Below, one piece after another: positions 3,238 through 32,337 of a stretch of DNA of 50,682 bases. The notes under the pieces were generated by a model that was not told where the DNA came from, made no database searches, and was given only the letters and a program-made list of their open reading frames with translations. Numbering within the stretch: the first letter of the stretch is position 1; the number at the start of each line of letters is the position of its first letter. A program made the translations under genes and the position numbers. The DNA comes from Coraliomargaritaceae bacterium. GTDB taxonomy: Bacteria; Verrucomicrobiota; Verrucomicrobiia; Opitutales; Coraliomargaritaceae. The DNA lies in contig CBFHKU010000001.1 of assembly GCA_965656495.1 (NCBI GenBank), forward strand, positions 1-50,682, written 5' to 3'.

Positions 3238-3287
3238 TCTATCGTGATTTCAGGAAGATTTTATATGTTTATTTTATATATTTTACC

Positions 3288-15014: not shown

Positions 15015-15052
15015 ATAATTAGAGGTGAAGTAAATAAAATAATTTTTTATAT

Positions 15053-15094
15053 TAATAAAACTGTTTGACAAATAAAGTCCAGCATTGTTTTAAT
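15053..15094 (+). promoter_or_regulatory. operator copy TAATAAAAC-T-GTTTGACAA (15053-15071) overlapping a sigma70-like promoter for the catabolic operon
   Basis: TTGACA 15065-15070, 18-bp spacer, TG-n-TTTAAT 15086-15094; lies in the divergent intergenic region. Confidence 0.7.
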
Positions 15095-15139
15095 TATTGA
15101 ACCACCTCGCTCTGTTTCAGCACAAGAATTCCATTGTTT

Positions 15140-16603
15140 ATGCTAGTCCCGAAAGCTATAAGTTCAAACACAGTGCCCTTGTGGGAAAAGTGTGCGCTGG
15201 GCTTGGGCACCTTATCAGGGTTCTTTGGCTTTGCTGGCATTAGTATTCTGGCGTATCCAGTTTATAACATGGTGCTTGGTCTAGAACCGGCATTGGTGGG
15301 TTTGGCTTTAATGATACCCCGCCTATGGGATGCGGTAACAGACCCCATTATGGGTCGAATCACGGACAATTATCGCTCCAAGTGGGGACGCCGTCGACCT
15401 TTCATTATCGGCGGTTCAGTCTTGATGGGCATTGTTTTTGCGCTGACTTGGATGGTGCCGGAGGAGTGGAGTAGCACCTGGAAAATTAGCTATCTTATCG
15501 GGATGCAATTGATTTTCTTCAGTTGCTATACTGTTTTTGCGGTTCCCTATACAGCACTCACCTATGAAATGACGCCGGACTACAATGAGCGCACGACAGT
15601 AATGTCCTTTTGTGCTTTCTTTCATAAGTTGGGAGAACTTGCCTCGGGTTGGATGCTACCGCTTGCGGGTTTTCTTAGCGTCGCATTGGTGGCGGGTGCC
15701 AGTGATCTGAATCGCAGCGGCATTATAACGATGGGTGTTTTTGTAGGCGTCTTTTTGCTTGCACTACCCGGTAGTCTTTCGGGGTTCTTTGTAAAGGAGC
15801 GTTTCAAACACAATGTCGTCGAGGGCGAAAAGATAGAGATAATCCAGGGAATTAAGGACGCGGTCAAAAATCGGGCATTCGTAATTCTGGTTGGTATTAT
15901 TATTCTCAATACATTGTCGGGGATAATTGCCTCGGGTATCGACCAATACCTGCTGGTCTACTACATGCATGGTGGTGAGAAGGCGGTAGGCTTGATGCAG
16001 AAGGGCCTTCTTACGACCGGCTATGCGGTGGTTGGCTTTCTTTCCATTCCAGTCATCTCATGGTTGGCTTCGCGTTTCGACAAGAAGGGTGCATTGGTTT
16101 TTGTGTATACGCTGATGATGGTGGGAGCGGTGGCAAAGTGGTATATTTTTCAGCCCGGACATCCCTTAATTGAGATCGGACTGATTCAGGTTTCTCCGAT
16201 ACTCTTAATTGATCCCTTGCTCTGTGGACCCATGTGGGTGGCGGTTAAGATTTTACTGGCTTCGATGATGGCGGACATCTGTGACTCGGATGAACTGAAG
16301 AATAGGAGTCGCCGGGAAGGCATGTTCGGTGCGGTGTTTTCCTGGCTGGAAAAGATGATCGTTTCGTTGGCGTTCTTTGGAACCGGCATTGCTTTGAGCT
16401 TATCTGGTTTTGCCGCTGATCTCGGAGCAAATCAATCACCTGAAACTTTCCTCAGTATGCGTCTCTTTTTGAGTGTTGCGTCTGGGGTTACCGCACTGGC
16501 GGCTTTGATTGTTCTGTATTGGTATCCAATAAATCAGGGAGTTGCAGCGCGTACACGCATGGAATTGGAAGCACGCCGTGGAAAGGTGAGTGCCCTGAAT
16601 TAA
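15140..16603 (+). CDS. glycoside-pentoside-hexuronide (MelB-like) MFS sugar:cation symporter
   Basis: PRLWDAVTDPIMGRITD, SKWGRRRPFI, VPYTALTYEMTPDYNERT, MMADICD...RREGMF; many TM segments. Confidence 0.93.
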   Translation: MLVPKAISSNTVPLWEKCALGLGTLSGFFGFAGISILAYPVYNMVLGLEPALVGLALMIPRLWDAVTDPIMGRITDNYRSKWGRRRPFIIGGSVLMGIVFALTWMVPEEWSSTWKISYLIGMQLIFFSCYTVFAVPYTALTYEMTPDYNERTTVMSFCAFFHKLGELASGWMLPLAGFLSVALVAGASDLNRSGIITMGVFVGVFLLALPGSLSGFFVKERFKHNVVEGEKIEIIQGIKDAVKNRAFVILVGIIILNTLSGIIASGIDQYLLVYYMHGGEKAVGLMQKGLLTTGYAVVGFLSIPVISWLASRFDKKGALVFVYTLMMVGAVAKWYIFQPGHPLIEIGLIQVSPILLIDPLLCGPMWVAVKILLASMMADICDSDELKNRSRREGMFGAVFSWLEKMIVSLAFFGTGIALSLSGFAADLGANQSPETFLSMRLFLSVASGVTALAALIVLYWYPINQGVAARTRMELEARRGKVSALN

Positions 16604-16614
16604 CTTTTGAATTT

Positions 16615-19254
16615 ATGAATTTTAAGTCTCTAAAAAGGATCATCTCGACTGGCGTTATATTGGGTGCGCTCACACTCACTGAAGCTTTTGCAGTGGCGCA
16701 GTCCATGCGGGACGGATTTGTGGTGGGAGCCGATTTGTCCGCACTGTCGGAAATGCAGCGGGCGCAGGCGGTTTATACGGTAGAGGGTGTTGAGCGTCCG
16801 CTACTGGAGATTTTTAAGGATGCCGGTTATGAAGTGGTGCGGCTCCGCCTGTTTTTGGAGGCTGACGGACGTTGGGGAGCGGTGAACGATTTGGAGACGA
16901 CCCTGGCGATTGCAGCACAGGTTGTCGAAGCCGGTTTTGGTTTCATGCTTGATTTTCATTATTCGGATACCTGGGCGGATCCCGGGCATCAGACCAAGCC
17001 CAAGGCATGGGCGGGATTATCTTACAAGGAACTGGTAAAGCAGGTTTATGATTACACTTACGAGACCTTAAAGATTTTTGAAGCGCGCGGATTGACACCT
17101 CAATACGTGCAAATTGGCAATGAAGTCACGCCGGGGATGCTCTGGCCGGATGGGCGTGTTTCGGGGGATAGTTTTAATACTCCGGAGCAGTGGGCTAAAT
17201 TCGCAGAGCTTTTGCAGTCGGGGTGCAATGCAGTGGATGCCGCACTTCCGGAAAACACGCCCAAGAAAATCGTACATATTGATCGGGGCGGAAGCCTGCA
17301 TGTCGTGAAATATTTTTTTGAGAATCTGGATAAGCATCAAGTCGATTACGATATCATCGGTCTCAGTCATTACCCATTCTATCACAATACAATGGATGAG
17401 CTACGTGAGTCGCTGACTTACATTGATACGGTCTTGCAAAAGTCTTTTATGCTTGTCGAAACAGGCCACCCACATGCCAAGTTGAGTAAGGCAGATGCTA
17501 GAAATCCCACAGGCTACCCGCATACGCCTGCCGGGCAGTATGCGTACCTTTATGAATTGACCGAGTTGGTCGCTGGATTCGATCATAGCTTGGGCATCTT
17601 TTATTGGTACCCTGAAGGTATACCAACGAAGCTGGAGCCGAAGCCCTGGTGTTATGGTGCAAATGCCCTTTTCTCAAAAGAAGGCGCGGCCTTGCCAGCC
17701 CTATCTGCAATGGCGGATGCGCTCAAAGATATACAGGAGAAGCAACTCACTGAAGATGCGCCATTGAATATCCTGCTGATTTTTGCGGAGGATCTTGGGC
17801 TACAAATTGGACCTTATGGCGATAAAACTGCGCCTACGCCAGCTTTGGATGCGCTTGCTTTCAGTGGAACTGTTTTTGAAAATGCCTACGCCACTGCTGC
17901 AACATGCAGTCCCTCGCGTTCAAGTCTGTTCACCGGACGCTATCCATTTCAGACCGGTCATCTTGGCTTGGCATCCTCGTATGGGTATTCAATTGGTTCC
18001 GGCGATGTGCTCTACACCGAGTTGCTCAAACAGGCGGGGTATACCCTCGGATTGAGTTACAAGATTCATGTCAATCCCGAGGAGCGCTTGAAGGCACCTT
18101 TTGATTTTCTTTACGATCATTCCCGTATTAGGAAGGATGATACCGATACAAAAGACTGGCAACAGCACCTCGCATACTTCAGCGAGTTTCTGGATGCGCG
18201 CGACCCAGCGAAGCCATTTTACTATCAAGCGCAAACGCATGATACTCATGAGCCTTTCGGGCGCGGGGTATTCAAGAATGCGCCAGCGCAGTCGCCTTAT
18301 CGAACCCTTGGCCCCGGTGAGGCTGCAACGCTTCCGGCTTTTGGCAATGACATCCGGCGAACAGATTGGCTGAATCGACAACTTGCGGCCTATTACAACT
18401 CGATCCAAAGGGTGGATGCTTTTGTCGGGGGTCTGATGGAAGAGCTTGAGCGTCGCGGATTGCGCGAGTCCACCTTGGTCGTTTTTTCATCTGACCATGG
18501 CCCATCCTTTACGCGGGGTAAACTCTCCGTGCATGAGTTGGGGATCAAGGTACCGCTGATTGTAAATTGGCCGAAGAGCGAACTGGCTGGCCAGCGTATC
18601 GCTAGGCTTACATCGCTGCTGGATTTGGCGCCAACATTTTTAGAGGCGGCAAGCTTGCCTCAACGCAATGACTTTATGGGCTATTCGTTGCGACCGATGC
18701 TGCAGAAAGGGGTCGCTCCGCGCGACTGGCGCGATACTTATGTCGCGGAATATGACTCGCATACCTCGGTGGATTGGTGGCCGATGCGCTCTTTGCGCGA
18801 TGATCGTTATAAATTGATTATGAACCTGCTAGCGGAGACCGAGCATGCGGCATTTCTCATAAAGGGCGGGCGCATTCAAAGTGAAGGCATGAAGGCGGAC
18901 CGCTTGGCGAGCCAGGAATCACCGCTTAATGGTCAAACTGCTGCCATTTATAAGCGCGCGAAGAACCCACCACGGTTTGAGCTGTATGATTTGCAGGAGG
19001 ATCCGATTGAAGCGGTCAACCTAGCCAGTCAACCCGAGCATAAAGCACGGGTAGAGGCGATGGCTTTAAAGTTGCAATCGTTTTTGCAGCGGCACGGCGA
19101 TCCGCTAGCGGACTCTGGATTTCTGGATCGGTTTACTCGCGCCCAGATCAAAAAACAAAAGGAGATTCGCGCATATGAGGCGAGGCACGGGGAAGGGAGC
19201 TTTTGGGGTAAGGCGGTGACCCATGCGGATTGGTCGGACTGGCTAAACGATTAA
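16615..19254 (+). CDS. GH53 endo-beta-1,4-galactanase fused to an S1 sulfatase
   Basis: GH53: GADLS, VRLRLF, LDFHYSDTWADPGHQ, VQIGNE, GLSHYP, VETG, GIFYW. Sulfatase from ~17761: NILLIFAEDLG, CSPSR, SSDHG. Start re-called to ATG 16615 (signal peptide). Confidence 0.93.
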   Translation: MNFKSLKRIISTGVILGALTLTEAFAVAQSMRDGFVVGADLSALSEMQRAQAVYTVEGVERPLLEIFKDAGYEVVRLRLFLEADGRWGAVNDLETTLAIAAQVVEAGFGFMLDFHYSDTWADPGHQTKPKAWAGLSYKELVKQVYDYTYETLKIFEARGLTPQYVQIGNEVTPGMLWPDGRVSGDSFNTPEQWAKFAELLQSGCNAVDAALPENTPKKIVHIDRGGSLHVVKYFFENLDKHQVDYDIIGLSHYPFYHNTMDELRESLTYIDTVLQKSFMLVETGHPHAKLSKADARNPTGYPHTPAGQYAYLYELTELVAGFDHSLGIFYWYPEGIPTKLEPKPWCYGANALFSKEGAALPALSAMADALKDIQEKQLTEDAPLNILLIFAEDLGLQIGPYGDKTAPTPALDALAFSGTVFENAYATAATCSPSRSSLFTGRYPFQTGHLGLASSYGYSIGSGDVLYTELLKQAGYTLGLSYKIHVNPEERLKAPFDFLYDHSRIRKDDTDTKDWQQHLAYFSEFLDARDPAKPFYYQAQTHDTHEPFGRGVFKNAPAQSPYRTLGPGEAATLPAFGNDIRRTDWLNRQLAAYYNSIQRVDAFVGGLMEELERRGLRESTLVVFSSDHGPSFTRGKLSVHELGIKVPLIVNWPKSELAGQRIARLTSLLDLAPTFLEAASLPQRNDFMGYSLRPMLQKGVAPRDWRDTYVAEYDSHTSVDWWPMRSLRDDRYKLIMNLLAETEHAAFLIKGGRIQSEGMKADRLASQESPLNGQTAAIYKRAKNPPRFELYDLQEDPIEAVNLASQPEHKARVEAMALKLQSFLQRHGDPLADSGFLDRFTRAQIKKQKEIRAYEARHGEGSFWGKAVTHADWSDWLND

Positions 19255-19271
19255 ACTAAAAGAATTTTGAA

Positions 19272-20438
19272 ATGATATATACTTTAATTAAAATTTATAT
19301 GCTCTCTGTTCTTTTGTTGTCATGTGCCTATGCCGGCAAGGGAAGTTGGGAAGCGCAGCAGTTGCGCGCGGAAGCAATTTCGGCTGACTATCAGCAACGT
19401 TATCCGAATCTTTGCTCGGATCGTCATGTCTTTAAGGTTGTTGAGTTGGCGGATGGTTCAAAACTGGAGCTGGACTTACGTTTGGTTCGCCCCAAGGAAG
19501 GTGGCCCTTTCCCGGTGGTTTTCTTTGTGCATGGGGGTGCATGGGCGACTGGAAGCAAGGCGCAATTTACCCATGAGTCCTATGTGCTCGCCGATCATGG
19601 TATTGCGGGAGTACGAATGGAGTATCGATGGAAAAGCCATGGCGCAAAGTATCAGGAGGCATTTAGTGATCTGATGGATTCGATTGATTATATTCGGAAA
19701 CGAGCGGATGCGCTGAAGATTGATTTTTCCAGAGTGGGTCTTGCGGGTGGCTCGGCTGGCGGACATCTTTCTGCGATAGCAGCGCAACTGACCCCCGAAT
19801 GTATTTCTTATGATGGTTATAATGGACTCTATGATGCCTTTGACCGGGGTCATAGTTCTTTTGGCGGTGGCGATTATACAGGAGAAACAGAAGCAGAAAA
19901 AAAGAAAGCTTCTGCAATTTATAACATTAAAGAAAATCCGCCTCATACCTTTCTTTATCACGGCACCGAGGATTTAACGGTGTCTATCGAGGTGGCGCGC
20001 CGATTTAGAGATGCTATTCGTGATCAGGGCGGTCATGCAGAGCTCCTTGCCTACGAGGGAGCCGGCCATGCCTTTTTCAATAAAAACCCCTATCAAGCGG
20101 CGACCACAAGCGCACTTCTTGCGCATACCCGCTATGTTTTTGGGTTAACTAATTTGGAGCCGAATCTTCCTGATTTTCAGCTGCCTCCAGCGATTGCTAA
20201 AGGTATGAAAGGTTTCGACTTAATTGGGGAGTGGAGGCTCGAGGGAGACTCGGCCAAGATGTTAAATTTTAACGCGGACTACAGCTTGAAATCAACCGCG
20301 CGAAAGGCAGAGAGATGGGAGCGTCGTTATGGAGCGTATTACATTATTTGGGACAGTGGGCATCAAAGTTTGATTGAGCCAGTTGACCCTACCGCATTCC
20401 AAATCAAGGGAACATTATATAAAAAGATCGATGAATGA
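19272..20438 (+). CDS. secreted alpha/beta-hydrolase (HSL/BD-FAE-like esterase)
   Basis: HGGAW, GGSAGG nucleophile elbow, HGTED, GAGHAF; signal peptide. Confidence 0.9.
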   Translation: MIYTLIKIYMLSVLLLSCAYAGKGSWEAQQLRAEAISADYQQRYPNLCSDRHVFKVVELADGSKLELDLRLVRPKEGGPFPVVFFVHGGAWATGSKAQFTHESYVLADHGIAGVRMEYRWKSHGAKYQEAFSDLMDSIDYIRKRADALKIDFSRVGLAGGSAGGHLSAIAAQLTPECISYDGYNGLYDAFDRGHSSFGGGDYTGETEAEKKKASAIYNIKENPPHTFLYHGTEDLTVSIEVARRFRDAIRDQGGHAELLAYEGAGHAFFNKNPYQAATTSALLAHTRYVFGLTNLEPNLPDFQLPPAIAKGMKGFDLIGEWRLEGDSAKMLNFNADYSLKSTARKAERWERRYGAYYIIWDSGHQSLIEPVDPTAFQIKGTLYKKIDE

Positions 20439-22005
20439 TTTAATAAAACACCAAATTCTTTTCTGTATTCTTATGATGGCGATTTCGGTTAATGGAGATC
20501 GACCGAATATTCTGTTCATCCACATGGAGGACATGGGCTGTGAAATACCTGCCTATGGCGACCATACGCAGGAAACACCTGCGCTGACTAAGTTGTCAGA
20601 GGAAGGGATGGTTTTTGAGCGGGCGCATGTCACTGCCGCTTCCTGCGCGCCGTCGCGGGGGAGTTTGTTCACGGGTCTCTATCCGCACCAAAATGGAATA
20701 TGGGCTTTTGATAAGACGCATGGTTTTCACTTCCGTGAAGGCGTACCGACTTTTGTGCAGTTATTAAAGGATGCCGGCTATGCTACGGGGGTTTCCTACA
20801 AGACCGGTGTGAGTCCACAAAGTGCTGTGCCTTTTGATCGAAAATATAATTATAATAAAAACGCACTCGGCAAGGATCCCGGCAAGTTCCAGGTTTCCAA
20901 CTGTATCGATGGCTTTGAGCATTTTCTGAAAAACCTGCCCAAAGGCAAGCGGTTCTATTTCCAGGCGCAGACCAACGACAGCCATGTGGACTGGTCGCCC
21001 TCATTCGAGCCCATCCGTGGGGAAAAATCGAAGCTTGGCTTTGATCCGGTTGATCCTCAAAGCGTGCGACCATTGCCCCACTGGGGTAAGGTGGAGATGA
21101 CTGCCCAAGCTCGGGAATGGTTGGCCAGTTATTATGGAGCAATTCAACGCGTGGATTATTTTGTCGAAAAAGTGCTCACGCTTCTTGAAGCATATGGTCA
21201 TGCGGAGGATACTCTGGTAATCTTTTCTGCTGACCACGGGCCGTCCGATTTGCATCGGGGCAAAACGACTTCCTATGAATTCGGCATACGCGTGCCGTTC
21301 ATCGTAAAGTGGCCGGGCGTTGTGAAGCCGGGGTCACGCTCGGAGGCATTGGTTTCGTTTGTTGATCTCATGCCGACCTTTCTGGAGGCAGCGGGACTGG
21401 CGAAACCAACTTATCTACCCGGGAAATCCATTTTACCTGCGCTGACCGGCGAACGACCCAAGGGGGATCGCAAATTACTTTACTCGGCCTATAACAGTCA
21501 CACCACCGGAATGAAAAATTTCTGGCCTGCACGGACCGTTACGGATGGGCGCTTTAAATTGATCCACAACCTGCTTGGCGACGGAAAAACCACGCGTCCG
21601 GGTGAAAACGGATCCAGCTTTTCAATCATCAAAATGATGGAAGCAACGGACGCAGGCCGTACCTTGATTCAACGTACCGCTACGCCGCCCGCCTATGAAC
21701 TATATGATTTAACTCGCGATCCGGGCGAGCTGATCGATCTGGCGGGTAATCCGAAATACAAAGGCATCGAAGAAGATTTAAAAGCATCACTGACTCACTG
21801 GCGTAAGGATATCGTAGCGGATCCGCTATCGAATCCGGCTACCTTGAAGGAATTTACCGAAGAGTATATGGCTCACTGCGAGCAATGGGAGGCTAAGTCC
21901 GAAGCAATGGGAGGTAGCAAAGCGATGCAAAAAAAAGGATGGGCCCTGAATAAATCACGCTGGATTCCTGTCTGGGATGCTGCGCCCTATAAATCTGAGC
22001 CATGA
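20431..22005 (+). CDS. S1 sulfatase (sulfamidase-like group)
   Basis: PNILFIHMEDMG, CAPSR, SADHG, RGKT; similar to the sulfatase half of the GH53 fusion; start re-called to ATG 20431. Confidence 0.92.
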   Translation: MNDLIKHQILFCILMMAISVNGDRPNILFIHMEDMGCEIPAYGDHTQETPALTKLSEEGMVFERAHVTAASCAPSRGSLFTGLYPHQNGIWAFDKTHGFHFREGVPTFVQLLKDAGYATGVSYKTGVSPQSAVPFDRKYNYNKNALGKDPGKFQVSNCIDGFEHFLKNLPKGKRFYFQAQTNDSHVDWSPSFEPIRGEKSKLGFDPVDPQSVRPLPHWGKVEMTAQAREWLASYYGAIQRVDYFVEKVLTLLEAYGHAEDTLVIFSADHGPSDLHRGKTTSYEFGIRVPFIVKWPGVVKPGSRSEALVSFVDLMPTFLEAAGLAKPTYLPGKSILPALTGERPKGDRKLLYSAYNSHTTGMKNFWPARTVTDGRFKLIHNLLGDGKTTRPGENGSSFSIIKMMEATDAGRTLIQRTATPPAYELYDLTRDPGELIDLAGNPKYKGIEEDLKASLTHWRKDIVADPLSNPATLKEFTEEYMAHCEQWEAKSEAMGGSKAMQKKGWALNKSRWIPVWDAAPYKSEP

Positions 22006-23558
22006 GAATATTCAAAATGAAGCTACGAACCTTTTTGTTTACAGCGTTACTGATCGCGGGCATCGCATCCGCGGAAAAACCGAACGTATTATTTATTGCG
22101 ATCGATGACCTGCGTAATTTTGTCAATTGCTTTGGTTATGATCAGGTGCATACGCCTAATATGGACCGGCTCGCGGAGCGTTCGACAATCTTTACCAATG
22201 CCCATAATCAAGCGCCGATGTGCGGGCCATCGCGTGCCTCGGTGATGACGGGCATCCAGCCGTACAATTCGGGAGCCTACGGGTTTGTCGACTGGCGCGC
22301 TGTTCCAGTGCTTCAGGCAGCGACGACCTTGAACCGACACTTTAAGGATAATGGCTACCATACTATGTCAGGCGGGAAAATCTATCACGGCAATGCCGGT
22401 GACACAGACTGGGATGAAGTCTATTGTAAGGCGAATCATAAGAATGGAACGTGGGGTGAAAAAGAGATACGAAATGAAGATCTGGCGCTCAAAGCCTACG
22501 GCGGGATGAAGCGCAACGGGCCGGTCGATCTGCCGGATGAAGCCTTTCATGATACTCTTACTGCGAACTTGGCGATCGAGCGTTTACAGCGCGATTATGA
22601 CAAGCCCTTCTTTTTGGCTGTGGGATTTACGAAACCGCATTTATCGTGGATTGCGCCGCGAAAGTATTTCGACCTATATGATGCGGAAAAGCTGAAGTTG
22701 CCGATTGTGTTGAAGGATGATGTCATGGATACGCCGGAAGCTGCTCAATTTCCGTCTTCTCCGGTTGAGGCCCTCACGATTGATCTAGAAGCGGAGGCGG
22801 CGAGACGCTTGTTACATGCGTACCTGGCAACTATCAGCTATATGGATGCGCAGCTCGGGCGAGTGCTGGATGCCCTCGATAAACGCGATGATGCCGAGAA
22901 CACAATCATTGTTTTGTGGTCGGATCATGGCTGGCATCTGGGGGAGAAACAGTGTTGGAAAAAATTCACCTTATGGAATGAGGCCACCCGCAACCCATTG
23001 ATGATTTCAGCTCCCGGGCTAAAGGCAAAAAAGCAGTGCGCCAAGCCGGCTCAGCTGGTGGATATTTATCCAACACTGGTTCAATTGTGTGCTCTGCCAA
23101 TGCCGCAGAGTCAGTTAGACGGACGCAGTTTGGTGCCACTCATGAAAAACCCTGCCGCTGAATGGAAGTGGCCAGCTATTACCTGTAACGGACGCGACTC
23201 GTATTCGCTGACGTTTGAGCACTGGAAATATAACCGCTTCTTTGACGGTTCTGAGGAGCTCTATAATCATTCTGTAGACCCGCATGAGCACACTAATCTT
23301 GCTCGCGAGGCGGAATATAATGAATTAAAAAGAAGCTTTGGTGAATATTTGCCAAAGCAAAGCCATCCCAATGTCAGTGATGGTAAGGAGTGGATGCTTT
23401 GGTTGGTGGATTACCCACCTTTGGATCTATGGCGGAAGGAATTGGCGGATATACGCAAAGAGCTTTCCCAAACGGGCAAGGTAAATAACAAAATTTTTCG
23501 ACGCTACTGTCGCAAGTCGATTCTAGGTTATGCGGAAAATCCCCCGCGCAATAAGTAA
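22002..23558 (+). CDS. S1 sulfatase (iduronate-2-sulfatase-like)
   Basis: PNVLFIAIDDLR, CGPSR, GKIYH, GFTKPH, WSDHGWHLGEK. Confidence 0.93.
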   Translation: MRIFKMKLRTFLFTALLIAGIASAEKPNVLFIAIDDLRNFVNCFGYDQVHTPNMDRLAERSTIFTNAHNQAPMCGPSRASVMTGIQPYNSGAYGFVDWRAVPVLQAATTLNRHFKDNGYHTMSGGKIYHGNAGDTDWDEVYCKANHKNGTWGEKEIRNEDLALKAYGGMKRNGPVDLPDEAFHDTLTANLAIERLQRDYDKPFFLAVGFTKPHLSWIAPRKYFDLYDAEKLKLPIVLKDDVMDTPEAAQFPSSPVEALTIDLEAEAARRLLHAYLATISYMDAQLGRVLDALDKRDDAENTIIVLWSDHGWHLGEKQCWKKFTLWNEATRNPLMISAPGLKAKKQCAKPAQLVDIYPTLVQLCALPMPQSQLDGRSLVPLMKNPAAEWKWPAITCNGRDSYSLTFEHWKYNRFFDGSEELYNHSVDPHEHTNLAREAEYNELKRSFGEYLPKQSHPNVSDGKEWMLWLVDYPPLDLWRKELADIRKELSQTGKVNNKIFRRYCRKSILGYAENPPRNK

Positions 23559-23575
23559 GTTTAAAATATATAGAT

Positions 23576-25018
23576 ATGAACTACGCATTATTAAAGAACT
23601 TTTGGTGTTTCATGGCAGTCAGCCTTTTACTTTTTGGGAAGTGCGTTGCAGGCGATGTAGAGAAGCGAAATATTCTCCTGCTTTGTATTGATGATTTGCG
23701 TCCGGTAATGGGTTGCTATGGGGGTGCTGCAAAGAGTCCGCATATGGATGCCTTTGGAGAGCAGGCCGTGATCTTTACGCGGCACTATGTGCAATGGCCT
23801 GTTTGCGGTCCCTCACGCGCTTCGCTTCTTGGAGGACTTCGACCCGATTCGAGCGGGATTTACGAGATTGGGGATTCCTGGCAAATCACCAAGCGACCGG
23901 AGACGCACCCAACCTTACCTTTGTATTTTAAGAAGCATGGTTATACAACCTTGTCCTACGGGAAAGTCTATCACGGGTCGGGTAATGGCAAGGGTTATGG
24001 CTGGAGTGAAGCTCCATGGAAGCTGAATTGGGACTGCTATGTGAACTTTGAGCAACTAAAGGAAAAGAACGCCTTTCGACCTGCCTATGAGATATATGAC
24101 GGACCAGATTCCCGACACAATGATTATCAGACTGCTGACCGGGTGATTGCAGCCTTACGAAAGAACAAGGATCGACCCTTCTTTATTGCGGGCGGCTTCT
24201 ACAAACCGCACCTTCCTTTTGTCGCTCCAAAGCGTTACTGGGATTGGTACACCCCTGATGAAATTGAACGCATTCAGCCGGATACATTGCCTTTAGGGGC
24301 AGCGGATTATATGTATCATTGGAACGAAATTAGCGCTTATGGAGATCCTCAAGGCAAGGAACTGTATGAATCCGATGTTGCTGTTGGGAAAGACCAGACT
24401 TTGCGCATGATTCATGCCTACTACGCCTGCGTTTCATTTATCGATGCTCAGGTTGGTCGTATTCTCGACGCCTTGGAAACTGAAGGATTGGCAGATAGCA
24501 CTGCAGTGGTCCTCTGGGGGGATCATGGTTTTCATTTAGGCGATCAAGGACGTTGGGCTAAGCATACTCAATTTGAAGGGGCGATGCGAGCCCCTTTAAT
24601 GGTACGCCTACCCGGCCAACAAAAAATATCCGGGGTAACTCAGGCTATAGTGGAATCTTTGGACCTTTACCCAACCTTGTGCGATTTTGCGGGATTACCC
24701 ATTCCAGAATTTGTTGAAGGAGAAAGCCTAATTCCATTCATAAGAGGCACCAGTAAAGGTAAGCAGGCGGCTTACAGTCAAATTCGTCCAGTGGGAGGAG
24801 CGAAAAAGTTTAGACCGATGGCATACAGCGTGCGCACAAAAGATTTTCGTTACGTAGAGTGGCGATTATCCGCAGAGGGAAGCGAAATTGTTAAGCAGGA
24901 GCTCTACGATTTAAGTCAAGACGGTGTTGAGACCGTTAATCTTGCCGATGATTCAGATATGATAACGGTTCTTCAATCGCATCAAAAGCTGCTTGCCAAA
25001 GTGCACCCGCATGAGTGA
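23576..25018 (+). CDS. S1 sulfatase (iduronate-2-sulfatase-like)
   Basis: NILLLCIDDLR, CGPSR, GKVYH, GFYKPHLPF, WGDHGFHLG. Confidence 0.93.
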   Translation: MNYALLKNFWCFMAVSLLLFGKCVAGDVEKRNILLLCIDDLRPVMGCYGGAAKSPHMDAFGEQAVIFTRHYVQWPVCGPSRASLLGGLRPDSSGIYEIGDSWQITKRPETHPTLPLYFKKHGYTTLSYGKVYHGSGNGKGYGWSEAPWKLNWDCYVNFEQLKEKNAFRPAYEIYDGPDSRHNDYQTADRVIAALRKNKDRPFFIAGGFYKPHLPFVAPKRYWDWYTPDEIERIQPDTLPLGAADYMYHWNEISAYGDPQGKELYESDVAVGKDQTLRMIHAYYACVSFIDAQVGRILDALETEGLADSTAVVLWGDHGFHLGDQGRWAKHTQFEGAMRAPLMVRLPGQQKISGVTQAIVESLDLYPTLCDFAGLPIPEFVEGESLIPFIRGTSKGKQAAYSQIRPVGGAKKFRPMAYSVRTKDFRYVEWRLSAEGSEIVKQELYDLSQDGVETVNLADDSDMITVLQSHQKLLAKVHPHE

Positions 25019-25420: not shown

Positions 25421-27685
25421 ATGCATTTTATTAAGTCCAATTCTTTTATTATTATCGTATGGTTTGCAGCCTTCCTGCAGCATGTTACAGCTGATTACTT
25501 ATCGGTCACAATAAATTCCGATATTTCTCAGTGGACGATTAGTCCCTATTTGGTTGGCCTGCATCAGGTTTATTTTAACGTGCCGGATGCCGAGTTTGTG
25601 GATGGGGAAATCAGCGCCTGGGCTAAACGCGTGGGAGTCTCAACATCCCGATACCCCGGAGGCAGTGTGGTTAAGACCTGGGATTGGGAAAATCCGAGCG
25701 GTTTCTTTGGTAATGACCCCTATGCTCCCGACTACGATCCAAGTAAGAATGTAGACGAATCAGAATGGATGAGCCTCGATGAATATCTGGATTTTGTGGA
25801 GGAATCGGGCATCATGCCGATGTTTGGGGTCAACTCACTCTCTGGAACCCTCTACGACCGGGAGGCTGACAGCATTGCGCGGGCGGTTCGTATGGTGCAG
25901 TACGTTAAGGATCGCGGGCACGGGGGTGCACTTTGGTATATTGGTAATGAGGAGGCTTACCAGCATGGAGGGATGGCTGAATACGCAGGTGTTTTAGCGC
26001 GGCATGCGGAAGCGATGAAGGGAGTGGATTCGGATATCCGAATATTTTGGAACCAGAATGACGCACTAGAAGCGAACATAGATGAATTTCTTGCGAACGA
26101 TGGCGGATGGATTGACGGACTTGAGACGCATGGAAAGTGGCCTTTTGGCGGGGATCCCGGGTTGCCGGTAGCTACCTTTGAGGAATGGGGGGTTGAGGTG
26201 CCCTTGCGCGATCGGAAAAACGGGACGGCTGCCGAGATTGCTGCGGGAGGTCGGGCGTGGCGCGAGGTGGCAGACAAATACCGGGCTATCGCAACCTTGG
26301 AGGGCCGTGAAATCCTTGTAGCAAATAATGAATACGGAATGGGGCCGAGTAAGTACTACACAGGATTTACCCGTTACACCAAGGGGCTTGTTCTCACGGA
26401 AATGTTGATGGAACACTTTATTGGAAATTGGTTTTCCGCCTGCCTGTGGGATCTGGAAAACGGAACCGATCGGGGCGTATTGGACAAGGCAAACGATTAC
26501 CGCTTCAATCCGGTTCACTATGGCATGAATATGCTGGCAGATTGTCAGGGTGGGGAATATATATCTACTGTCTCAACCGAAATTCCCTCCGTGCATGGAT
26601 TTGCCGCACGGAAGGATGACATCATTTTCATCTATCTCCTGAACAAGACCCTTGAGAATCATCAAGTGAACATCAGCCTGACCGGAGGAGGGGATCTCGC
26701 TGGATTTGGTCGCCGTATGCAAGATAGTGCCGATGGTTACGGTGAGCTTGTTCCAGTGGCGATGGGGCATGGAGATGTCCTTCTCGCCGCATGGGACTTT
26801 GAACAGAATGGCAACCGCGACTTGCCAAACTACACGGCTTCTGGAGTGGATATAGCAACGTATGATTCATCGTCGAACGAGCTTACTAGCAAAAATAGTA
26901 TGCTGCAAAACTTTGTCTTTAGCAGTTCGAAATCGTCCTCAGATGTCACGTGGGGCAACCTAAGCCTTACCCCAGCACCGTTAAGTCGGGATGATAATAT
27001 CTCTGAAGGCATTAGCACTAAGTTCCGCGACAGTGACGGGTCGATCATACAGGACCTAGTCGTGAAGTTGCTTCCCGGTGCAGAGTACACCTTGCAAAGC
27101 CTACACTTCGACTTCATAACACCCTTTAACAACAGTCCGAAGAATTTTACGGTCAGTCTTGTCGGTGGACTTGATGGTGGACCGAAAATCTTGTGGACCC
27201 GCAGCGTGGCTGGCACTAATACAGCTGACACTATGGACGCATTTGAGGGAGTAGATATCGATCTCTCGACCGTTCTTACAGACCTTGTTTTGTCAGGAGA
27301 AGAGACCCTCACGATACGGTTTGATATGAGTGTCGACGTAGCTAGTGGGAAGACAGGGGCCTCCTTTGTCGACAATGTTGCGCTGGTAGCTTCTGCTTTA
27401 CAAACTTCCCTTCCGCCACTGACCTTTACTCAGATGGCTTTTGTCGATCTGAACAAAGGCACATATCCAGCCTTAAAAGATATTTCCGCGAAAGCGGATG
27501 AAAGCTTCAATTTTCGGTGGTCCTCTATCCCGGGAGCACGCTTTGAGTTGGAGCGGTCCACAAATCTGCAGAACTGGACACCTACCGGCGAGTTTATCTA
27601 TCCAGACAATACCTGGACTGAAAGTTGTGTACCGATTGATCCGCAAAACAATACCTTCTATAGAGTTTTGTTTAGGAACGAATAA
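25421..27685 (+). CDS. secreted clan GH-A-like glycoside hydrolase (GH51/GH79-like fold) with an inserted PEP-CTERM-body domain
   Basis: RYPGG, MSLDEYLDF, WYIGNE (acid/base), NNEYG (nucleophile), YLLNK...LPPLT beta-sandwich; C-terminal RSTNLQNW...FYRV; start re-called to ATG 25421. Confidence 0.8.
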   Translation: MHFIKSNSFIIIVWFAAFLQHVTADYLSVTINSDISQWTISPYLVGLHQVYFNVPDAEFVDGEISAWAKRVGVSTSRYPGGSVVKTWDWENPSGFFGNDPYAPDYDPSKNVDESEWMSLDEYLDFVEESGIMPMFGVNSLSGTLYDREADSIARAVRMVQYVKDRGHGGALWYIGNEEAYQHGGMAEYAGVLARHAEAMKGVDSDIRIFWNQNDALEANIDEFLANDGGWIDGLETHGKWPFGGDPGLPVATFEEWGVEVPLRDRKNGTAAEIAAGGRAWREVADKYRAIATLEGREILVANNEYGMGPSKYYTGFTRYTKGLVLTEMLMEHFIGNWFSACLWDLENGTDRGVLDKANDYRFNPVHYGMNMLADCQGGEYISTVSTEIPSVHGFAARKDDIIFIYLLNKTLENHQVNISLTGGGDLAGFGRRMQDSADGYGELVPVAMGHGDVLLAAWDFEQNGNRDLPNYTASGVDIATYDSSSNELTSKNSMLQNFVFSSSKSSSDVTWGNLSLTPAPLSRDDNISEGISTKFRDSDGSIIQDLVVKLLPGAEYTLQSLHFDFITPFNNSPKNFTVSLVGGLDGGPKILWTRSVAGTNTADTMDAFEGVDIDLSTVLTDLVLSGEETLTIRFDMSVDVASGKTGASFVDNVALVASALQTSLPPLTFTQMAFVDLNKGTYPALKDISAKADESFNFRWSSIPGARFELERSTNLQNWTPTGEFIYPDNTWTESCVPIDPQNNTFYRVLFRNE

Positions 27686-27709
27686 ATAGAATCTGCTTTT
27701 GTTGCGCTT

Positions 27710-30184
27710 ATGAAAGTATTTTCCTTGCATTTTAAGGTTAAAATATCTGCTGTTTTTTTATTACTTAACCAAGCTGGCTCAGCTGATTCTGCATCAGAAT
27801 ATTTCGTAGACTTGAGCGATAATCTTCGGGTTATTTCCCAAGGTGTGGCAGGAATAGGTATGCTGGATCGTGCCAGTTCTTCTGCTTTTGCAAAGAGTTC
27901 GGATTACAAAGAGGCGATACAAGCTTATGGCGCTGGCTCACTTCGATGGCCAAATGCGGGTCATGATAATTTACTCATTACGCATTGGGATAATGATCAT
28001 ACCTTCTACTACAGTAATGGGCCGTTCTCAACGCTTGAAGCCGGCAATATTTGGGATCCTCACTATAATTTGGAGTCGGCCGCAGATCACAGTGAGGTAA
28101 TTGATCTTGAATCATTTGTAAACGTCCTGAACGGCACGGGTGCCGACCCTATCATGATGTTTACATGGCGTTCCGCAGAGCTATGGAGGAATATTAATGG
28201 GCAGAATGTCTTTTACCGAGACCCGGAGCCGCTGCGCCTTGACGATTCCCCCATGCCGCAGGAAGAGGCGGACCGCCTCAGTAGTCGGGAGTTGCAGTTC
28301 CTGGAAAACAACCGCCAGTTGAGAACATATTTTGATTACGGAGGAACTGATTATCCTGTCTGTCAGGTGGGTGGAGAGGTATTTATTGGTTGGGAGGAAG
28401 GCCAAAAGCCATGGGAGCTTTACGGCGTGGATAGGGGAGTATGGATAGGAGAGACACTCCATGATTATTTGGAAGATTTGCAGAAATTTGCCCGGCATTC
28501 AGGGTATGGCATTAGGCTCATGGCCCAATTCAAGGAAGCCAATAGTGGCGGAAATGAAATTCCTACACCCGTTACCCACCTCCAGGGTGAACTAGAAAAA
28601 CTTATTAATGCAACAGGTGATTTGGTGTCCTTTTATGGATGTTCAATGCATTATCGCCACAGTTTTGAGACCTGGCTCGATCAAGCGAATATGACCTGGG
28701 GATTTATTGTTGATGACGGCGAGGGTACCGCTGAAGAAATACGGACCTGGTTTGAAAACTTTACAGCCGCAAAGGGGTATCCGGGTATAAAGTTGATTCC
28801 CCATGCGAATGGAATCGGAAGCAGTCAGACAGACCTCATTCCAAATGACTACAATCGATTTAAAATGGGGCTCGTCAACACCCAGTTCATTATGGAGCTT
28901 ATCGAGGCCGGTTACCCATATGCCTGCCACTATGGAGGTATCAAGGGAGAGTACACCGATAATGTGGGCCTAAAAAATAGTAATTCCATCGCTTTTATGT
29001 CTAATAATGGCGAGTATACCTATAATCCAGTTTTGCATGCAACCGGCCTAATTGGCCGTGCCGTAATGGAAGAAGATGACCGTCCCGCCCGCTTGGTTGC
29101 CCATTCTTTGGTAAGTGGCAACGAAACCGGAAAGACTCAGTTTATGGTCATCGAGTCATCCAGTGGGCAGGCCGATCTGGCAGCAAATGGAGGCAATCTT
29201 GATTCAGCCATTACGCAGGTTCTGGATGTTTACGTGCTTAACAAGCGCAACCTAAGTCATGAGGTGAGCGTCGATTTTTCTGCTGAAGTGCAGAATTCAT
29301 TTGAGGTCAGGCGTTATTCGGAAGGCTCCGAGGAGACCGCTCCCATGATTTCAGATACCGCTGGTGTCGTCTGGATTGATGCCCTGAATAACTCGCGACT
29401 TAATGTTAGCGCTCCTCCCTTGAGTATCACTCGGGTCAAGGTTCATATTTTGGGCGATACCGGAACGTCCACAAGCAATCGGCCTCCACGCTTCAATTCA
29501 CATCTACTTATTATGCCGGAAGTGGAGCAGGGCTTGGCTTACTCGGGAAGCCTTCAAGGCAGCGCAGTGGATAGAGATACAGGAGATGAATCAAATTATA
29601 CTAAAGTGGACGGCCCCGATTGGCTTAGTATTGCTTCTGATGGCTCATTCAGTGGCACCCCAACCAGTGAGCATCTTGGGCTGAACTCTTTTACCGTTGA
29701 GGTAAGCGACGGCAAGGAAGTCGATCAGGCGACGCTTCGCATTACAGTCATAGAGGAACGGTCGGATATAGAGCGTTGGCGTCATCTGAACTTTAGTGCT
29801 TATGAAATTTCCAGGAGTCAGGCTGAATGGACAAAGGATTTGGATAATGACGGTTTGAGTAATTTTGAGGAGTACGTGTTTTGTGCGAATCCACGCAGTG
29901 GGAACATGGACAATGTCATACGCCTTGAAAAAGTGAATGTAAATGGGCAGGCTTTTGCCGAAATAGCTTATGCCCGTCGCGAAGCTTATTCAGGGCTGAG
30001 CTATTCTCTTCGTCAAAGTGCCGACCTTAGCGCATGGGAAACCGTTCCCGTTGAAGCGTACATGATGCTCCCGGATTATCCCCAGAGCCTTGGTGATGGA
30101 AAAGAACTCGTACGTCTTCGTATAACACCTTCGCTCACAGAGCCGGGCCAAAGTAAAATTTTTTTCCGGGTAGATGTTCAGTGA
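27710..30184 (+). CDS. secreted GH-A-like paralog with degenerate catalytic motifs, putative Ig/cadherin-like domain and C-terminal tail
   Basis: LRWPNAG, QVGGE, GLVNTQFIME, YNPV, YVLNK, APPLSIT align to the preceding gene; GPDWLSIASDGSFSGTP Ig-like; DLDNDGLSNFEEY; QSADLSAW...FFRV. Confidence 0.72.
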   Translation: MKVFSLHFKVKISAVFLLLNQAGSADSASEYFVDLSDNLRVISQGVAGIGMLDRASSSAFAKSSDYKEAIQAYGAGSLRWPNAGHDNLLITHWDNDHTFYYSNGPFSTLEAGNIWDPHYNLESAADHSEVIDLESFVNVLNGTGADPIMMFTWRSAELWRNINGQNVFYRDPEPLRLDDSPMPQEEADRLSSRELQFLENNRQLRTYFDYGGTDYPVCQVGGEVFIGWEEGQKPWELYGVDRGVWIGETLHDYLEDLQKFARHSGYGIRLMAQFKEANSGGNEIPTPVTHLQGELEKLINATGDLVSFYGCSMHYRHSFETWLDQANMTWGFIVDDGEGTAEEIRTWFENFTAAKGYPGIKLIPHANGIGSSQTDLIPNDYNRFKMGLVNTQFIMELIEAGYPYACHYGGIKGEYTDNVGLKNSNSIAFMSNNGEYTYNPVLHATGLIGRAVMEEDDRPARLVAHSLVSGNETGKTQFMVIESSSGQADLAANGGNLDSAITQVLDVYVLNKRNLSHEVSVDFSAEVQNSFEVRRYSEGSEETAPMISDTAGVVWIDALNNSRLNVSAPPLSITRVKVHILGDTGTSTSNRPPRFNSHLLIMPEVEQGLAYSGSLQGSAVDRDTGDESNYTKVDGPDWLSIASDGSFSGTPTSEHLGLNSFTVEVSDGKEVDQATLRITVIEERSDIERWRHLNFSAYEISRSQAEWTKDLDNDGLSNFEEYVFCANPRSGNMDNVIRLEKVNVNGQAFAEIAYARREAYSGLSYSLRQSADLSAWETVPVEAYMMLPDYPQSLGDGKELVRLRITPSLTEPGQSKIFFRVDVQ

Positions 30185-30222
30185 AGTCTCTGGTAGGGGT
30201 TAGTCTACAGCCAAAAGAGCGA

Positions 30223-32337
30223 TTATGTTAAAATAACCTTTTTCTTGCTTATTGCTTTTGATCCAATCTCCAGTCGCTCTAAGTGAACCTCGTAGGGTTT
30301 CAATTCAATGCTCTTTTGATTGCCCTCTGAACTTTCAAGGCGGACCGTTTGTTTTTGATCTGAATAATTAATTAGAAATTGGTACTTCTTATTCTCATTT
30401 ATGCGAACAGTTGCATGAACTCCTGTTGGCATCGGTGTCGCAACAACACATTCAAGTGATAATTCTTGTACTAAATAGCGTACAAAATCTTTATGAAAGG
30501 CATCACAGAAATTGGCAGCTAGTTGAAAAACATGTCCCTTGCCAAACTTGCAGTGCGAGGCGATTGAGCTTCCTGCCCAGTGACCTTCAGTTAAGGTCAC
30601 TACACTTTGAGCACCTTCCAAATGTAGAAGTCCATAAGAATGGGTAATCTGGTAGTTGCCCTCTAGCTTTTTCAGAATTCCAGAAGTTTCTATCCTTCGA
30701 CTCTCCTTTTCAAAAAGAGCGTCGATTTCTTCAACTTTAGCTCCAGCAATTTTCCATAAACCCTGTCCGGGCAGGCCGTCCCGCAGCACACGGTTGCACT
30801 CATCAACAACCCCACTTAGGTGGCTCAGAATGAGACAGCCGCCAGTCTCTACGAAATCTATCAGGATTTTCGCGACCGTCTCGGGTAACATGTAAAGCGC
30901 GGGAGCCAACACTACCTTACGACCTCTTAGGTCGACCTCAAGGGTTTTAGGGTCTGGGCATATGATGTCGGTCGCGACACTGGCTTGCCACCAGCCGCGG
31001 TGATGCTCCTTTAATAGCTCGTGATAGGCATCTTCCGGGTGTGTTTCGATCCCCTTTGGAACCGGCTGGCGGATGCCTTCGGAGCTATTGAGTGCCCATT
31101 GGCTTTCCCAGTCGTGGATGATCGCGACCTCTGCCCTGGGTGAGGTAGATGCGGCTAGGTCATTGCAAGACGCGAGCCAACTGCCGACTTGTGCTACTTC
31201 CTTAAATATACGAGTATCAGTGCGACTATCGTGATCAAGAATCGCACCATGGAATTTTTCGGCTCCGCCACGGCTTTTTCGAAACTGAAAATAATGAAGC
31301 CCATTTCCGCCATGCGCAATGACTTGCGCTGATTCTGCCATATGCATGCCTCGAGGTTTAAGTTTGTTAATTGGTTTCCAATTAATAGCCGAGGGGGAGC
31401 ATTCAATTTGCATCCATGGCTTTCCTTTGCCCAGGCCGCGCATTAGGTCATGGGTCAGGGAGGTCGATGCTGCGGATCGCCACATGTCGGGTGCCCCATC
31501 GTAGGATGGGTAGGAATCATTTGTCACAACATCTAAAACTTTGGACCAGCGCCAATAATCCAGATCCGGATGAAAGCACATAAAATTCGTGGTAATGGGT
31601 ATGCTTGGTGTGTGCTTTTTTAAGGGGGCAATTTCATTTTCAATAAATTCCACGTGTAGATCGTTGTTAAAGCGTTTCCAGTCAATGATTAATCCATCAA
31701 TGCTTGAATCTCTCGGATCAATCTGGTGCCATTCCGTGAAGGTATGATTCCAGAAACGTGTCCACCACGCTTCATTCAGTCGTTCCAATGACTGGTAGCG
31801 CTGTTCGAGCCATTCGTGAAAGCGAGTCAAGCAATGCTTGCAGTAACACTCACCTTGCAACTCATTTCCAACATGCCACATCGCTAAAGCTGGATGATTT
31901 TTATATCGCACTGCAAGTTGCTCATTTATTAGAGCGACTTTCTCACGGTAAAATTTTGAAGAGGGGCAGTGATTGTGACGCAACCCAGACTGTTCCAATA
32001 CGCCATCTTTGTTGACGCGACGAATTTCCGGATATTTCGCGGACATCCACATTGGCTTACTGCCGGATACGGTTCCCAGAAAAGCCATAACGCCTTCACT
32101 GGCGAGACGATCCATTAATTGGTCCATCCACTCAAACTGAAATACGCCTTCTTGAGGTTCATACAGTGTCCATGAAAAAATTCCTATTGATACGCTGGTA
32201 ATCCCAGCGAGGCGCATCGATTCAAAGTCTTCATCTAATATGGATGTAGCGAGATTCCATTGCTCAGGATTGTAATCTGCACCATGTAGGAGGCGCGGAT
32301 TGCAGTTATTGAATTCAGAATGAAGCGGTGCTTTCAT
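30223..32337 (-). CDS. GH42 beta-galactosidase
   Basis: GADYNPEQW, GIFSWTLYEP, WHVGNE, ECYCKHC, PITTNFM, EKFHGA; no signal peptide. Confidence 0.95.
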   Translation of the reverse strand: MKAPLHSEFNNCNPRLLHGADYNPEQWNLATSILDEDFESMRLAGITSVSIGIFSWTLYEPQEGVFQFEWMDQLMDRLASEGVMAFLGTVSGSKPMWMSAKYPEIRRVNKDGVLEQSGLRHNHCPSSKFYREKVALINEQLAVRYKNHPALAMWHVGNELQGECYCKHCLTRFHEWLEQRYQSLERLNEAWWTRFWNHTFTEWHQIDPRDSSIDGLIIDWKRFNNDLHVEFIENEIAPLKKHTPSIPITTNFMCFHPDLDYWRWSKVLDVVTNDSYPSYDGAPDMWRSAASTSLTHDLMRGLGKGKPWMQIECSPSAINWKPINKLKPRGMHMAESAQVIAHGGNGLHYFQFRKSRGGAEKFHGAILDHDSRTDTRIFKEVAQVGSWLASCNDLAASTSPRAEVAIIHDWESQWALNSSEGIRQPVPKGIETHPEDAYHELLKEHHRGWWQASVATDIICPDPKTLEVDLRGRKVVLAPALYMLPETVAKILIDFVETGGCLILSHLSGVVDECNRVLRDGLPGQGLWKIAGAKVEEIDALFEKESRRIETSGILKKLEGNYQITHSYGLLHLEGAQSVVTLTEGHWAGSSIASHCKFGKGHVFQLAANFCDAFHKDFVRYLVQELSLECVVATPMPTGVHATVRINENKKYQFLINYSDQKQTVRLESSEGNQKSIELKPYEVHLERLEIGSKAISKKKVILT

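Follow-up and report, generated by a model that had tools for sequence, protein, structure and literature searches.

A predicted jelly-roll module shared by PEP-CTERM proteins and inserted into a clan GH-A protein of a Coraliomargaritaceae bacterium: a candidate carbohydrate-binding family

Galactose-binding-like carbohydrate-binding modules (CBMs) are jelly-roll domains that occur in tandem, are appended to glycoside hydrolases (GHs) and have a DN motif in their final strand. Tandem repeats in secreted proteins are also formed by sub-repeats of reelin and by MAM domains, and the "choice-of-anchor" concept describes small secreted bodies with exchangeable C-terminal tails, as in NF038120 (QFxxD), NF038129 and NF038126 (FxDxF). 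New CBM families and CBMs inserted into enzymes are not rare, which limits the surprise of finding another. In the accessible part of the source, fewer than 10% of PEP-CTERM proteins matched Pfam, and PEP-CTERM sorting was tied to exopolysaccharide systems (PMC1569441). The accessible part of a study of Verrucomicrobiota metagenome-assembled genomes (MAGs) reports that no SusCD genes were found (PMC8857213). Here, we describe an unnamed module in 50,682 nt of Coraliomargaritaceae bacterium contig CBFHKU010000001.1 (assembly GCA_965656495.1; hereafter, the window). It occupies residues 452-658 (26774..27394, forward strand) of a secreted clan GH-A protein of 754 aa (25421..27685, forward strand) and is related to two PEP-CTERM proteins encoded in the same locus. 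Homology, topology, modelling and reads support it well as a mobile jelly-roll module with an optional in-fold insertion, and it is probably a new CBM family that recognises a sulfated glycan containing galactose, both on enzymes and in free lectins at the cell surface.

The initial annotation, made from the letters alone, had proposed that this segment matches the mature part of PEP-CTERM protein 1 from end to end and is spliced into the C-terminal β-sandwich of the enzyme, whose last strand resumes after it. Both proposals held. By BLASTP, the module shared 73 of 213 positions (34%; E 6e-29) with PEP-CTERM protein 1 (P0003; 8983..9693, forward strand) across residues 3-207 of 207, and every matching block that had been quoted lay within this alignment. 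PEP-CTERM protein 2 (P0004; 9764..10516, forward strand) matched at 28% identity (E 2e-7), so that both alignments of the insert were significant. In shuffle controls, z was 36 for PEP-CTERM protein 1 and 11.7 for PEP-CTERM protein 2, and none of 1000 shuffles matched the observed score, which ruled out a chance likeness through low complexity. At the DNA level, the insert showed no significant similarity to the gene for PEP-CTERM protein 1 (best blastn E 0.4). A 210-sequence profile found three copies of the module in the 2.06-Mb genome of the window, all in this one locus. PEP-CTERM protein 1 comprises a signal peptide, the module (9046-9606) and a VPEA-type tail (ORF, BLASTP, Pfam and profile); the tail variant scored below threshold, although its helix and basic residues were visible. 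PEP-CTERM protein 2 belongs to a more distant subfamily of the same family (BLASTP and profile), and its tail exceeded the TIGR02595 cut-off (17.3 bits, cut-off 16). Signal peptides of the free copies were judged by eye.

The module sits in the last hairpin of the enzyme's β-sandwich. The insert columns held merely 4-11 residues in 35 aligned GH homologs without the insert, and the closest insert-less alleles ran unbroken from YGELV through a short hairpin to LP.LTF. In the full-length AlphaFold model, residues 25-450 formed a confident barrel and sandwich, and the strands past the insert (residues 660-664 and 668-675; pLDDT, the per-residue model confidence, about 89-95) carried on the GH sandwich. 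These resumed final strands, SLPPLTFTQMAFV, lie at 27407..27445 (forward strand). The insert itself was modelled there with low confidence and unreliably, as the alignment contained just 2 full insert rows; alignment A3, which combined the GH with free domains, put the latter in the wrong place and was left out of folding. The protein encoded at 27710 had been cited as an insert-less control. It does reach APPLSIT, at residue 568, but it is a weak control because it barely aligns to this GH (E 8e-4). Contigs of 1129 nt with 0 differences spanned both junctions in the seawater runs X6 and X8, which belong to different studies; the insert is therefore no assembly artefact, and an assembly chimera was ruled out.

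The insertion was polymorphic. Within the 90% cluster of the enzyme, the insert was absent from seven of ten members (six of 549 aa and one of 597 aa) and present in three, giving a net insert of 205 aa (754 minus 549). Four seawater runs of four studies (X6, X8, X17 and X18), none of which was flagged as a possible source, were compared with the region. Insert and insert-less alleles occurred together in three of them (X6, X8 and X17); the insert-less contigs skipped 861 bases and held 246 between, a net difference of 615 nt (205 codons). Contigs of X17 also crossed the left-hand junction of the form with the insert, and X18 covered the region patchily with no joint seen. Contig depths in these runs give no measure of allele frequency.

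Divergence from insert-less alleles delimited an approximate recombination cassette (26600..27440, forward strand) made up of the insert and the flanking sandwich strands. The insert-less locus L006 shared 99% identity with the window in 27420-30295 and 87.5% in 25503-26753; at the cassette edges, identity was 61% at 26600-26699 and 99% from 27420 on. Residues 396-451 were identical to the insert-bearing homolog P0013 at 51 of 56 positions, compared with 32-35 of 49-51 positions for the insert-less alleles, whereas the barrel matched the insert-less alleles (336-350 of 371) more closely than P0013 (321 of 371). Overall, the 754-aa and 549-aa alleles were 91-94% identical in the barrel. Because the flank resembles P0013 while the barrel resembles the insert-less alleles, we infer one insertion event followed by spread as a recombination cassette. 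As a separate observation, the GH gene is a mosaic relative to L006 4018-5340 (window 25500-27440), with identity per 100 bp ranging from 61% to 99%, and more allele bubbles appeared in reads at about 26122-26560, which suggests frequent intragenic recombination in this gene.

The nearest relatives of the insert were six free proteins (62-66% by BLAST), three with PEP-CTERM tails and three with another tail. The insert was 67-75% identical to the free proteins P0006-P0011 and to the P0013 insert, compared with 39% to PEP-CTERM protein 1, and in quick trees it grouped with all of these (SH-aLRT 100), leaving PEP-CTERM protein 1 outside. These values ruled out direct duplication of PEP-CTERM protein 1 into the GH gene, and the local protein is a distant paralog rather than the donor. 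BLAST and profile searches found no close free gene of the donor type in the genome of the window. The P0013 insert was 93% identical to the free protein P0010 across its second half; both are listed with a longest contig of 30,473 bp, suggesting that their genes are neighbours.

The GH family carries the module internally, N-terminally, C-terminally (Pelagicoccus mobilis L017, Pontiella L026 and P0195) or at both ends (P0158, from Tichowtungia aerotolerans). The 84 homologs of the enzyme came from marine bacteria of several phyla and from one eukaryote transcript (P0090). Among them, the module was internal in two (P0012, which is the window's own cluster, and P0013) and N-terminal in five (P0023, P0025 and P0085-87); profile A1 gave no match in the remainder. 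A single clade of the 11 GH-fused copies among 33 rows was rejected in a quick tree (approximately unbiased (AU) test, p-AU 2.5e-6), with the group set by architecture, though after the first tree had been viewed. Because one clade was rejected and the positions differ, we conclude that this GH family recruited the module on several independent occasions. A sister placement of the P0147 and P0167 copies to the window's clade (93 in the first tree) was gone in the second; both were quick trees. P0147, a close homolog of the protein encoded at 27710 (E 1.6e-237), bears the module C-terminally. In other organisms (P0016, P0017, P0024, P0028 and L007 2-4522), a different, unrelated and unnamed module of about 190 aa stands before the GH; it matched neither Pfam nor the profile of the present module.

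To place these fusions, 1.84 billion representatives were searched with a 6-sequence profile (E <= 0.001), which returned 274 clusters; the best 150 of the 274 were examined and comprised 70 short members (<=330 aa) and 80 longer ones. A pattern of our own making recognised a PEP-CTERM-like tail in 53 of the 70 short members. Among the 80 long carriers, 23 contained a sulfatase (7), GH39/28/5 (4), BNR_4 (5) or a domain of this GH-A clan (7, of which one was weak and another a fragment); BNR_4 was presumed to be glycan-active by way of the ulvan lyases. Six others held a metallophosphatase, Exo_endo_phos (two), an esterase, FecR or an FGE-sulfatase-like domain, eight held other binding-type modules only, and no catalytic domain was recognised in the remaining 43. 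Overall, the fusion partners were sulfatases, GH2, GH5, GH28, GH29, GH39, GH-A proteins and esterases. Tandem copies were found in 39 of 163 proteins (two in 31, three in 6 and four in 2). The repeated enzyme and sulfatase fusions, together with the 53 short members with PEP-CTERM-like tails, bear out the earlier proposal that the domain serves both as an enzyme appendage and as a free protein. The wider proposal, a function for anonymous PEP-CTERM proteins in general, shrinks to one family, which has 2 genes in this genome, where a loose cut-off gave 27 PEP-CTERM matches. Two carriers join the module to Exo_endo_phos plus MAM (L040 9615-12251 and L042 7775-10324), and P0197 joins it to a FecR-like anti-sigma protein, possibly a glycan sensor.

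With the domain-only alignment A6, which was built from these genomes so that the tally is partly circular, the module was matched in 19 of 301 Verrucomicrobiota genomes, including 11 of 20 in the family of the window. The same alignment matched 4 of 201 genomes in the phylum of the Planctomycetota MAG and none of 201 genomes of Bacteroidota, the phylum of Tamlana. A tally made with A2 (87 of 301) was discarded in favour of A6 because A2 contains the signal peptide and the PEP tail. To judge from these matches, the family belongs to Verrucomicrobiota and, rarely, to Planctomycetota. A single-sequence search of 60 relatives gave no match outside the genome of the window, although profile searches did find matches. 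Locus scans with P0002 (metagenomes) and P0098 (genomes) gave no match, and a search for longer proteins with P0003 found none among 5539 candidates, which is weak evidence. The protein atlas returned unnamed clusters only (0.83-0.90), with recognition of P0002 below threshold.

Like the NF038120, NF038129, NF038126 and "choice-of-anchor" proteins, the family combines a small secreted body with exchangeable tails: PEP-CTERM, a WAGYPW type (P0008, P0010 and P0011) and, in one representative (P0208), a type IX secretion system tail. However, the window's proteins scored 13-25 bits against cut-offs of 50-80 for the three NF models, with matches overlapping the shared tail, and the tail-less insert did not match them. 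NF038120 gave weak matches in 40 of 71 members (E-values only), and no "choice-of-anchor" model matched the family. Two unnamed tail kinds recur on carriers, the WAGYPW type and the small all-beta domain at 27473-27676, and both are possible sorting domains.

The AlphaFold (AF2) model of the module alone, built from 71 sequences, was almost all-beta (pLDDT 82.7; predicted TM-score 0.84), and a jelly-roll fold was predicted. Foldseek matched it to CBM8, CBM27, CBM28, a gingipain adhesin domain and MAM. When it was compared with 48,161 chains by VIA-align, the CBM matches were CBM22 (4xup; Z 10.1, root-mean-square deviation (rmsd) 3.6, 144 residues aligned), CBM8 (7t7z; 9.8), the galactan-binding CBM61 (2xom; 9.4), CBM27/29/16 (9.0-9.2) and a porphyran-binding CBM (8xmz; 8.9), over 127-146 residues in all. 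The module therefore shares with galactose-binding-like CBMs the predicted jelly roll, attachment to GHs, tandem copies and the DN motif on the last strand. In contrast to them, it is often the sole domain of PEP-CTERM proteins, has longer loops and a family-specific GSxDGTxG motif, is 8-15% identical and has no CBM Pfam match below E 0.05. 8xmz was also the sole PDB sequence match under E 0.001 (6.8e-5), but it was misregistered and serves as a lead only. The module folds alone in prediction and is contiguous within carbohydrate-active enzymes, as CAZy expects of a CBM.

The proposed check against CBM jelly rolls gave a divided answer, as did the CBM-like behaviour that it was meant to probe: CBM8, CBM22 and CBM61 were matched and fusions to glycan enzymes and sulfatases recur, but reelin and MAM match at least equally well. 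Sub-repeats of reelin, together with MAM domains, gave the best Z values (11.4, 10.6 and 10.3), and across the reelin and MAM matches Z was 10.3-11.4 and rmsd 3.1-3.5. Because the reelin, toxin, MAM and CBM matches all fall in one tie band with identities of <=17%, the models make the superfamily (galactose-binding-like jelly roll) clear but not the family. No PF00629 or reelin match was found on 40 copies, and the module differs from reelin and MAM in its bacterial, enzyme and polysaccharide utilization locus (PUL) context; some carriers contain a MAM domain in addition to the module. Where scores were given, the module exceeded the cut-off of no Pfam or NCBIfam model, which agrees with the proposal of a novel domain. 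P0002 matched 0 Pfam families, the best CBM match among the 40 copies was CBM_3 (E 0.069, one member), and a viral fold library gave generic matches only. This likeness to reelin and MAM raises the alternative of a structural spacer or scaffold stabilised by Ca2+, comparable to a reelin sub-repeat or an Ig or cadherin stalk; the module would then spread through local duplication and recombination, with the insert as a tolerated, near-neutral passenger. The alternation of the module with He_PIG or Big_9 domains in many carriers, the majority of insert-less alleles and the 43 long carriers with no recognised catalytic domain would suit a spacer. However, it is hard to see what a spacer would do inside a hairpin or as the entire body of small anchored proteins, of which there are 53, and we consider this explanation unlikely.

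Over 210 copies, conserved polar residues were D200 (1.00), N201 (0.99), D113 (0.97), D57 (0.92) and S55 (0.84), and an aromatic residue was conserved at W60 (0.95), F157 (0.75) and F118 (0.64). The conserved motifs of the family were GW[D], GSxDGTxG, L..[H]FD, DxDxL, L.D..L..GE and DN. We take the N-terminal acid and the DN motif for a putative structural Ca2+ site; D57, D113 and the aromatic residues 60, 118 and 157 are candidate ligand residues. Polar conservation reaches past the DN motif (D57 and D113), which speaks against a spacer. Since Asp and Asn are the most conserved residues and carriers include metal-dependent sulfatases and phosphatases, the main role of the module might instead be to bind a metal (Ca2+ or a different cation) by means of its acidic motifs, for the metal supply or stability of secreted hydrolases. 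This is extremely improbable: a DN-type Ca2+ site is normally structural in galactose-binding-like folds, and the confinement of the module to particular glycan loci would be left unexplained.

That confinement was examined in other loci and genomes. A sulfatase, GH, polysaccharide lyase (PL) or carbohydrate esterase (CE) gene lay within about 10 kb of the strong copy in 14 of 18 loci, and a sulfatase in 11 of 18; two of the 20 loci (L032 and L038) had no core-domain match and were left out of the count. In a Pontiella MAG (G343), all 30 module matches fell on 4 contigs, which also held 10 of its 14 GH29 and 11 of its 27 sulfatase matches. The carriers there were a GH2+GDSL protein, GH29, two sulfatases, GDSL and SASA esterases and this GH family, in addition to FGE-sulfatase-like proteins, non-catalytic repeats and four free PEP-CTERM proteins. 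Long modular sulfatases carried the module in 2 of 2 cases within the carrier contigs, compared with 0 of 5 (>1000 aa) elsewhere, and the absence from these five also speaks against a spacer. The pattern in G343 fits a function bound up with a single glycan system better than that of a general anchor. It bears as well on the alternative that the module binds the cell's own exopolysaccharide or surface proteins, so that secreted enzymes are retained or made adhesive rather than targeted to a substrate. The link of PEP-CTERM sorting to exopolysaccharide systems, made in the accessible part of PMC1569441, the existence of fusions to non-glycan enzymes and the fold likeness to MAM and gingipain adhesin domains are consistent with such retention. 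Genome-wide use would be expected of a general anchor, yet 3 of 3 copies in the present genome lie in one locus and 30 of 30 in G343 on 4 contigs, and most carriers have a C-terminal tail of their own; we regard retention as improbable.

Several observations weigh against the preferred reading of the module as a CBM for a sulfated, galactose-containing glycan. Most enzyme alleles (7 of 10) lack the insert, and the top VIA-align matches were not CBMs (reelin, Z 11.4; a Clostridioides difficile toxin binding domain, 10.4; MAM, 10.3). Two acidic residues that are widespread in the family, at positions D156 and D159, are missing from the subfamily of the window. A catalytic or regulatory partner could be recognised in 29 long carriers, and in 6 of these it was neither a carbohydrate-active enzyme nor a sulfatase; the non-glycan partners were Exo_endo_phos (P0196, P0228, L040 and L042), metallophosphatase (P0128) and FecR (P0197). 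The partner counts are biased by a search profile drawn from the subfamily of this locus, and they stand without a matched background for enrichment. Four of the 18 loci (L029, L031, L039 and L047) were not PUL-like, carrier loci cover differing substrates (PL8/GH88, GH106, GH20, GH94 and GH29), and the genome of the window had no GH29 match. The clustering in G343 could also result from local duplication. A sulfatase was near 8 of 23 PEP-CTERM genes in the genome of the window, two of them belonging to the module family, compared with 17% of random positions; the PUL location is therefore partly generic, because PEP-CTERM genes of any kind adjoin sulfatases above random.

The host enzyme (P0001) was assigned to clan GH-A from its ORF, a precomputed PF22848 match, weak GH51 matches and Foldseek, and is an unclassified GH51/GH79-like protein. 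Its catalytic (β/α)8 barrel and most of the β-sandwich span residues 24-450 (25490..26770, forward strand), as judged from the confident part of the full-length model and the 84 homologs. E177 in IGNEE (25949..25951, forward strand) is near-invariant in alignment A5 and lines up with the GH51 NE motif, and E304 in NNEYG (26330..26332, forward strand) is invariant; by analogy with clan GH-A, they would act as acid/base and nucleophile, respectively. A small C-terminal all-beta domain (residues 685-752; 27473..27676, forward strand) was seen in the model; this tail type is common on carriers and had no Pfam match. The predicted barrel-and-sandwich fold (TM about 0.6 by target) and the two conserved glutamates are shared with GH51 arabinofuranosidases and GH79 β-glucuronidases, the top Foldseek matches, whereas identity to them was 14-17% and NF051901 gave 33 bits against a cut-off of 625. 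GH51 sequence matches were weak and limited to residues 65-208 (E about 1e-5 to 1e-8), with no full-length match at the family level. In other genomes, this GH family is flanked mainly by sulfatases, GH2, GH29, GH95 and GH30, as judged from 70 selected ORFs in 16 of the 20 loci. The gene at 27710..30184 (forward strand) encodes another, remotely related GH-A-like protein, which has an Ig domain but lacks the module (BLASTP and Pfam); it had no Pfam catalytic match. Both GH-A-like proteins apparently belong to unclassified families and are candidate new GH families for sulfated glycans.

The locus begins with a LacI-type regulator (7868..8836, forward strand; translation inspected), and the two PEP-CTERM genes are followed directly by a TonB-dependent receptor (10578..13340, forward strand; PF00593 and PF07715). 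The region 13365..25018 encodes four sulfatase-type ORFs, recognised by inspection for CxPSR, and, by Pfam, a sugar transporter of the major facilitator superfamily, a fusion of a GH53 endo-galactanase to a sulfatase (16519..19254) and a BD-FAE esterase (19272..20438). A GH42 β-galactosidase is encoded convergently (30223..32337, reverse strand; PF02449, E 1e-132). The established activities of these families (five sulfatase domains, GH53 and GH42) point to a sulfated β-galactan as the substrate, by analogy. The genome contained 70 sulfatase matches. Both PEP-CTERM genes lie immediately before the receptor gene in the same orientation, and SusCD genes were not found in Verrucomicrobiota MAGs according to the accessible part of PMC8857213; the free copies might therefore be SusD-like partners that dock on the receptor and pass oligosaccharides to it. 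However, five receptor queries found no receptor homolog in the 20 loci, and the enzyme fusions would be left unexplained, which makes this role very improbable.

Other observations concern the surroundings of the locus. A small secreted EF-hand protein is encoded directly upstream of the GH gene (25066-25383), where L006 has a TonB receptor. In L004 (7079-14869; G000:C1, about 199-207 kb), a receptor-like gene of 1359 aa is followed by two PEP-CTERM proteins of another family, which also end in a DN strand; they show weak similarity to P0003 (E 1e-6 to 2e-8) and gave no match to the core profile. At the left end of the window (595-7444), inspection showed an insertion sequence-like transposase fragment, low-GC hypothetical genes and a DNA methyltransferase with an endonuclease-like partner. 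The module locus lies in a stretch of lower GC (35-51% per 2 kb, compared with 56-63% from 34 kb on), and this lower-GC island spans 1-33000. No tRNA genes were found in the window.

By title and abstract, no paper on this domain was found in the open full-text literature; subscription journals, supplements and CAZy lay outside that search. The accessible part of one preprint (bioRxiv 10.64898/2026.10.06.756941) does not contain the terms PEP and CBM. The family appears new relative to Pfam, NCBIfam and the open literature, a comparison that recent CAZy and dbCAN CBM families lie outside.

If the module is a CBM, its role on enzymes would be to keep the catalytic domain attached to the polymer, which may benefit the enzyme, and free PEP-CTERM copies, sorted by an exosortase, would act as lectins that bind this polymer at the surface of the cell. 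The turn of the last β-hairpin of the GH probably received its copy from a free gene like those of P0006-P0011; the first and last strands of the model both join the jelly-roll matches, as they would if the termini of the module were close together, so that the GH fold would survive the insertion. The insert then likely moved between lineages by homologous recombination and was kept as an optional allele. More tentatively, and with less than even confidence, small PEP-CTERM proteins may be the surface glycan binders of marine Verrucomicrobiota, replacing a missing layer of SusD and surface glycan-binding proteins and forming a reservoir of free, sorted CBMs from which GHs and sulfatases obtain grafted copies; the in-fold graft would then segregate in plankton as an allele with or without the CBM, tuning the enzyme between soluble and particle-bound sulfated galactan.

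Verrucomicrobiota are major consumers of sulfated algal glycans, and their lack of SusCD raises the question of how they capture polymers. The present family ties a free PEP-CTERM body to glycan enzymes, so that this question can be addressed by a binding assay with a protein of 200 residues. The alleles of 754 aa and 549 aa constitute a natural plus/minus experiment and clearly exemplify a domain insertion caught as a polymorphism. If the proposed function is true, a binder of sulfated galactans or galactofucans would be a useful probe, and one group of anonymous PEP-CTERM surface proteins would gain a testable function.

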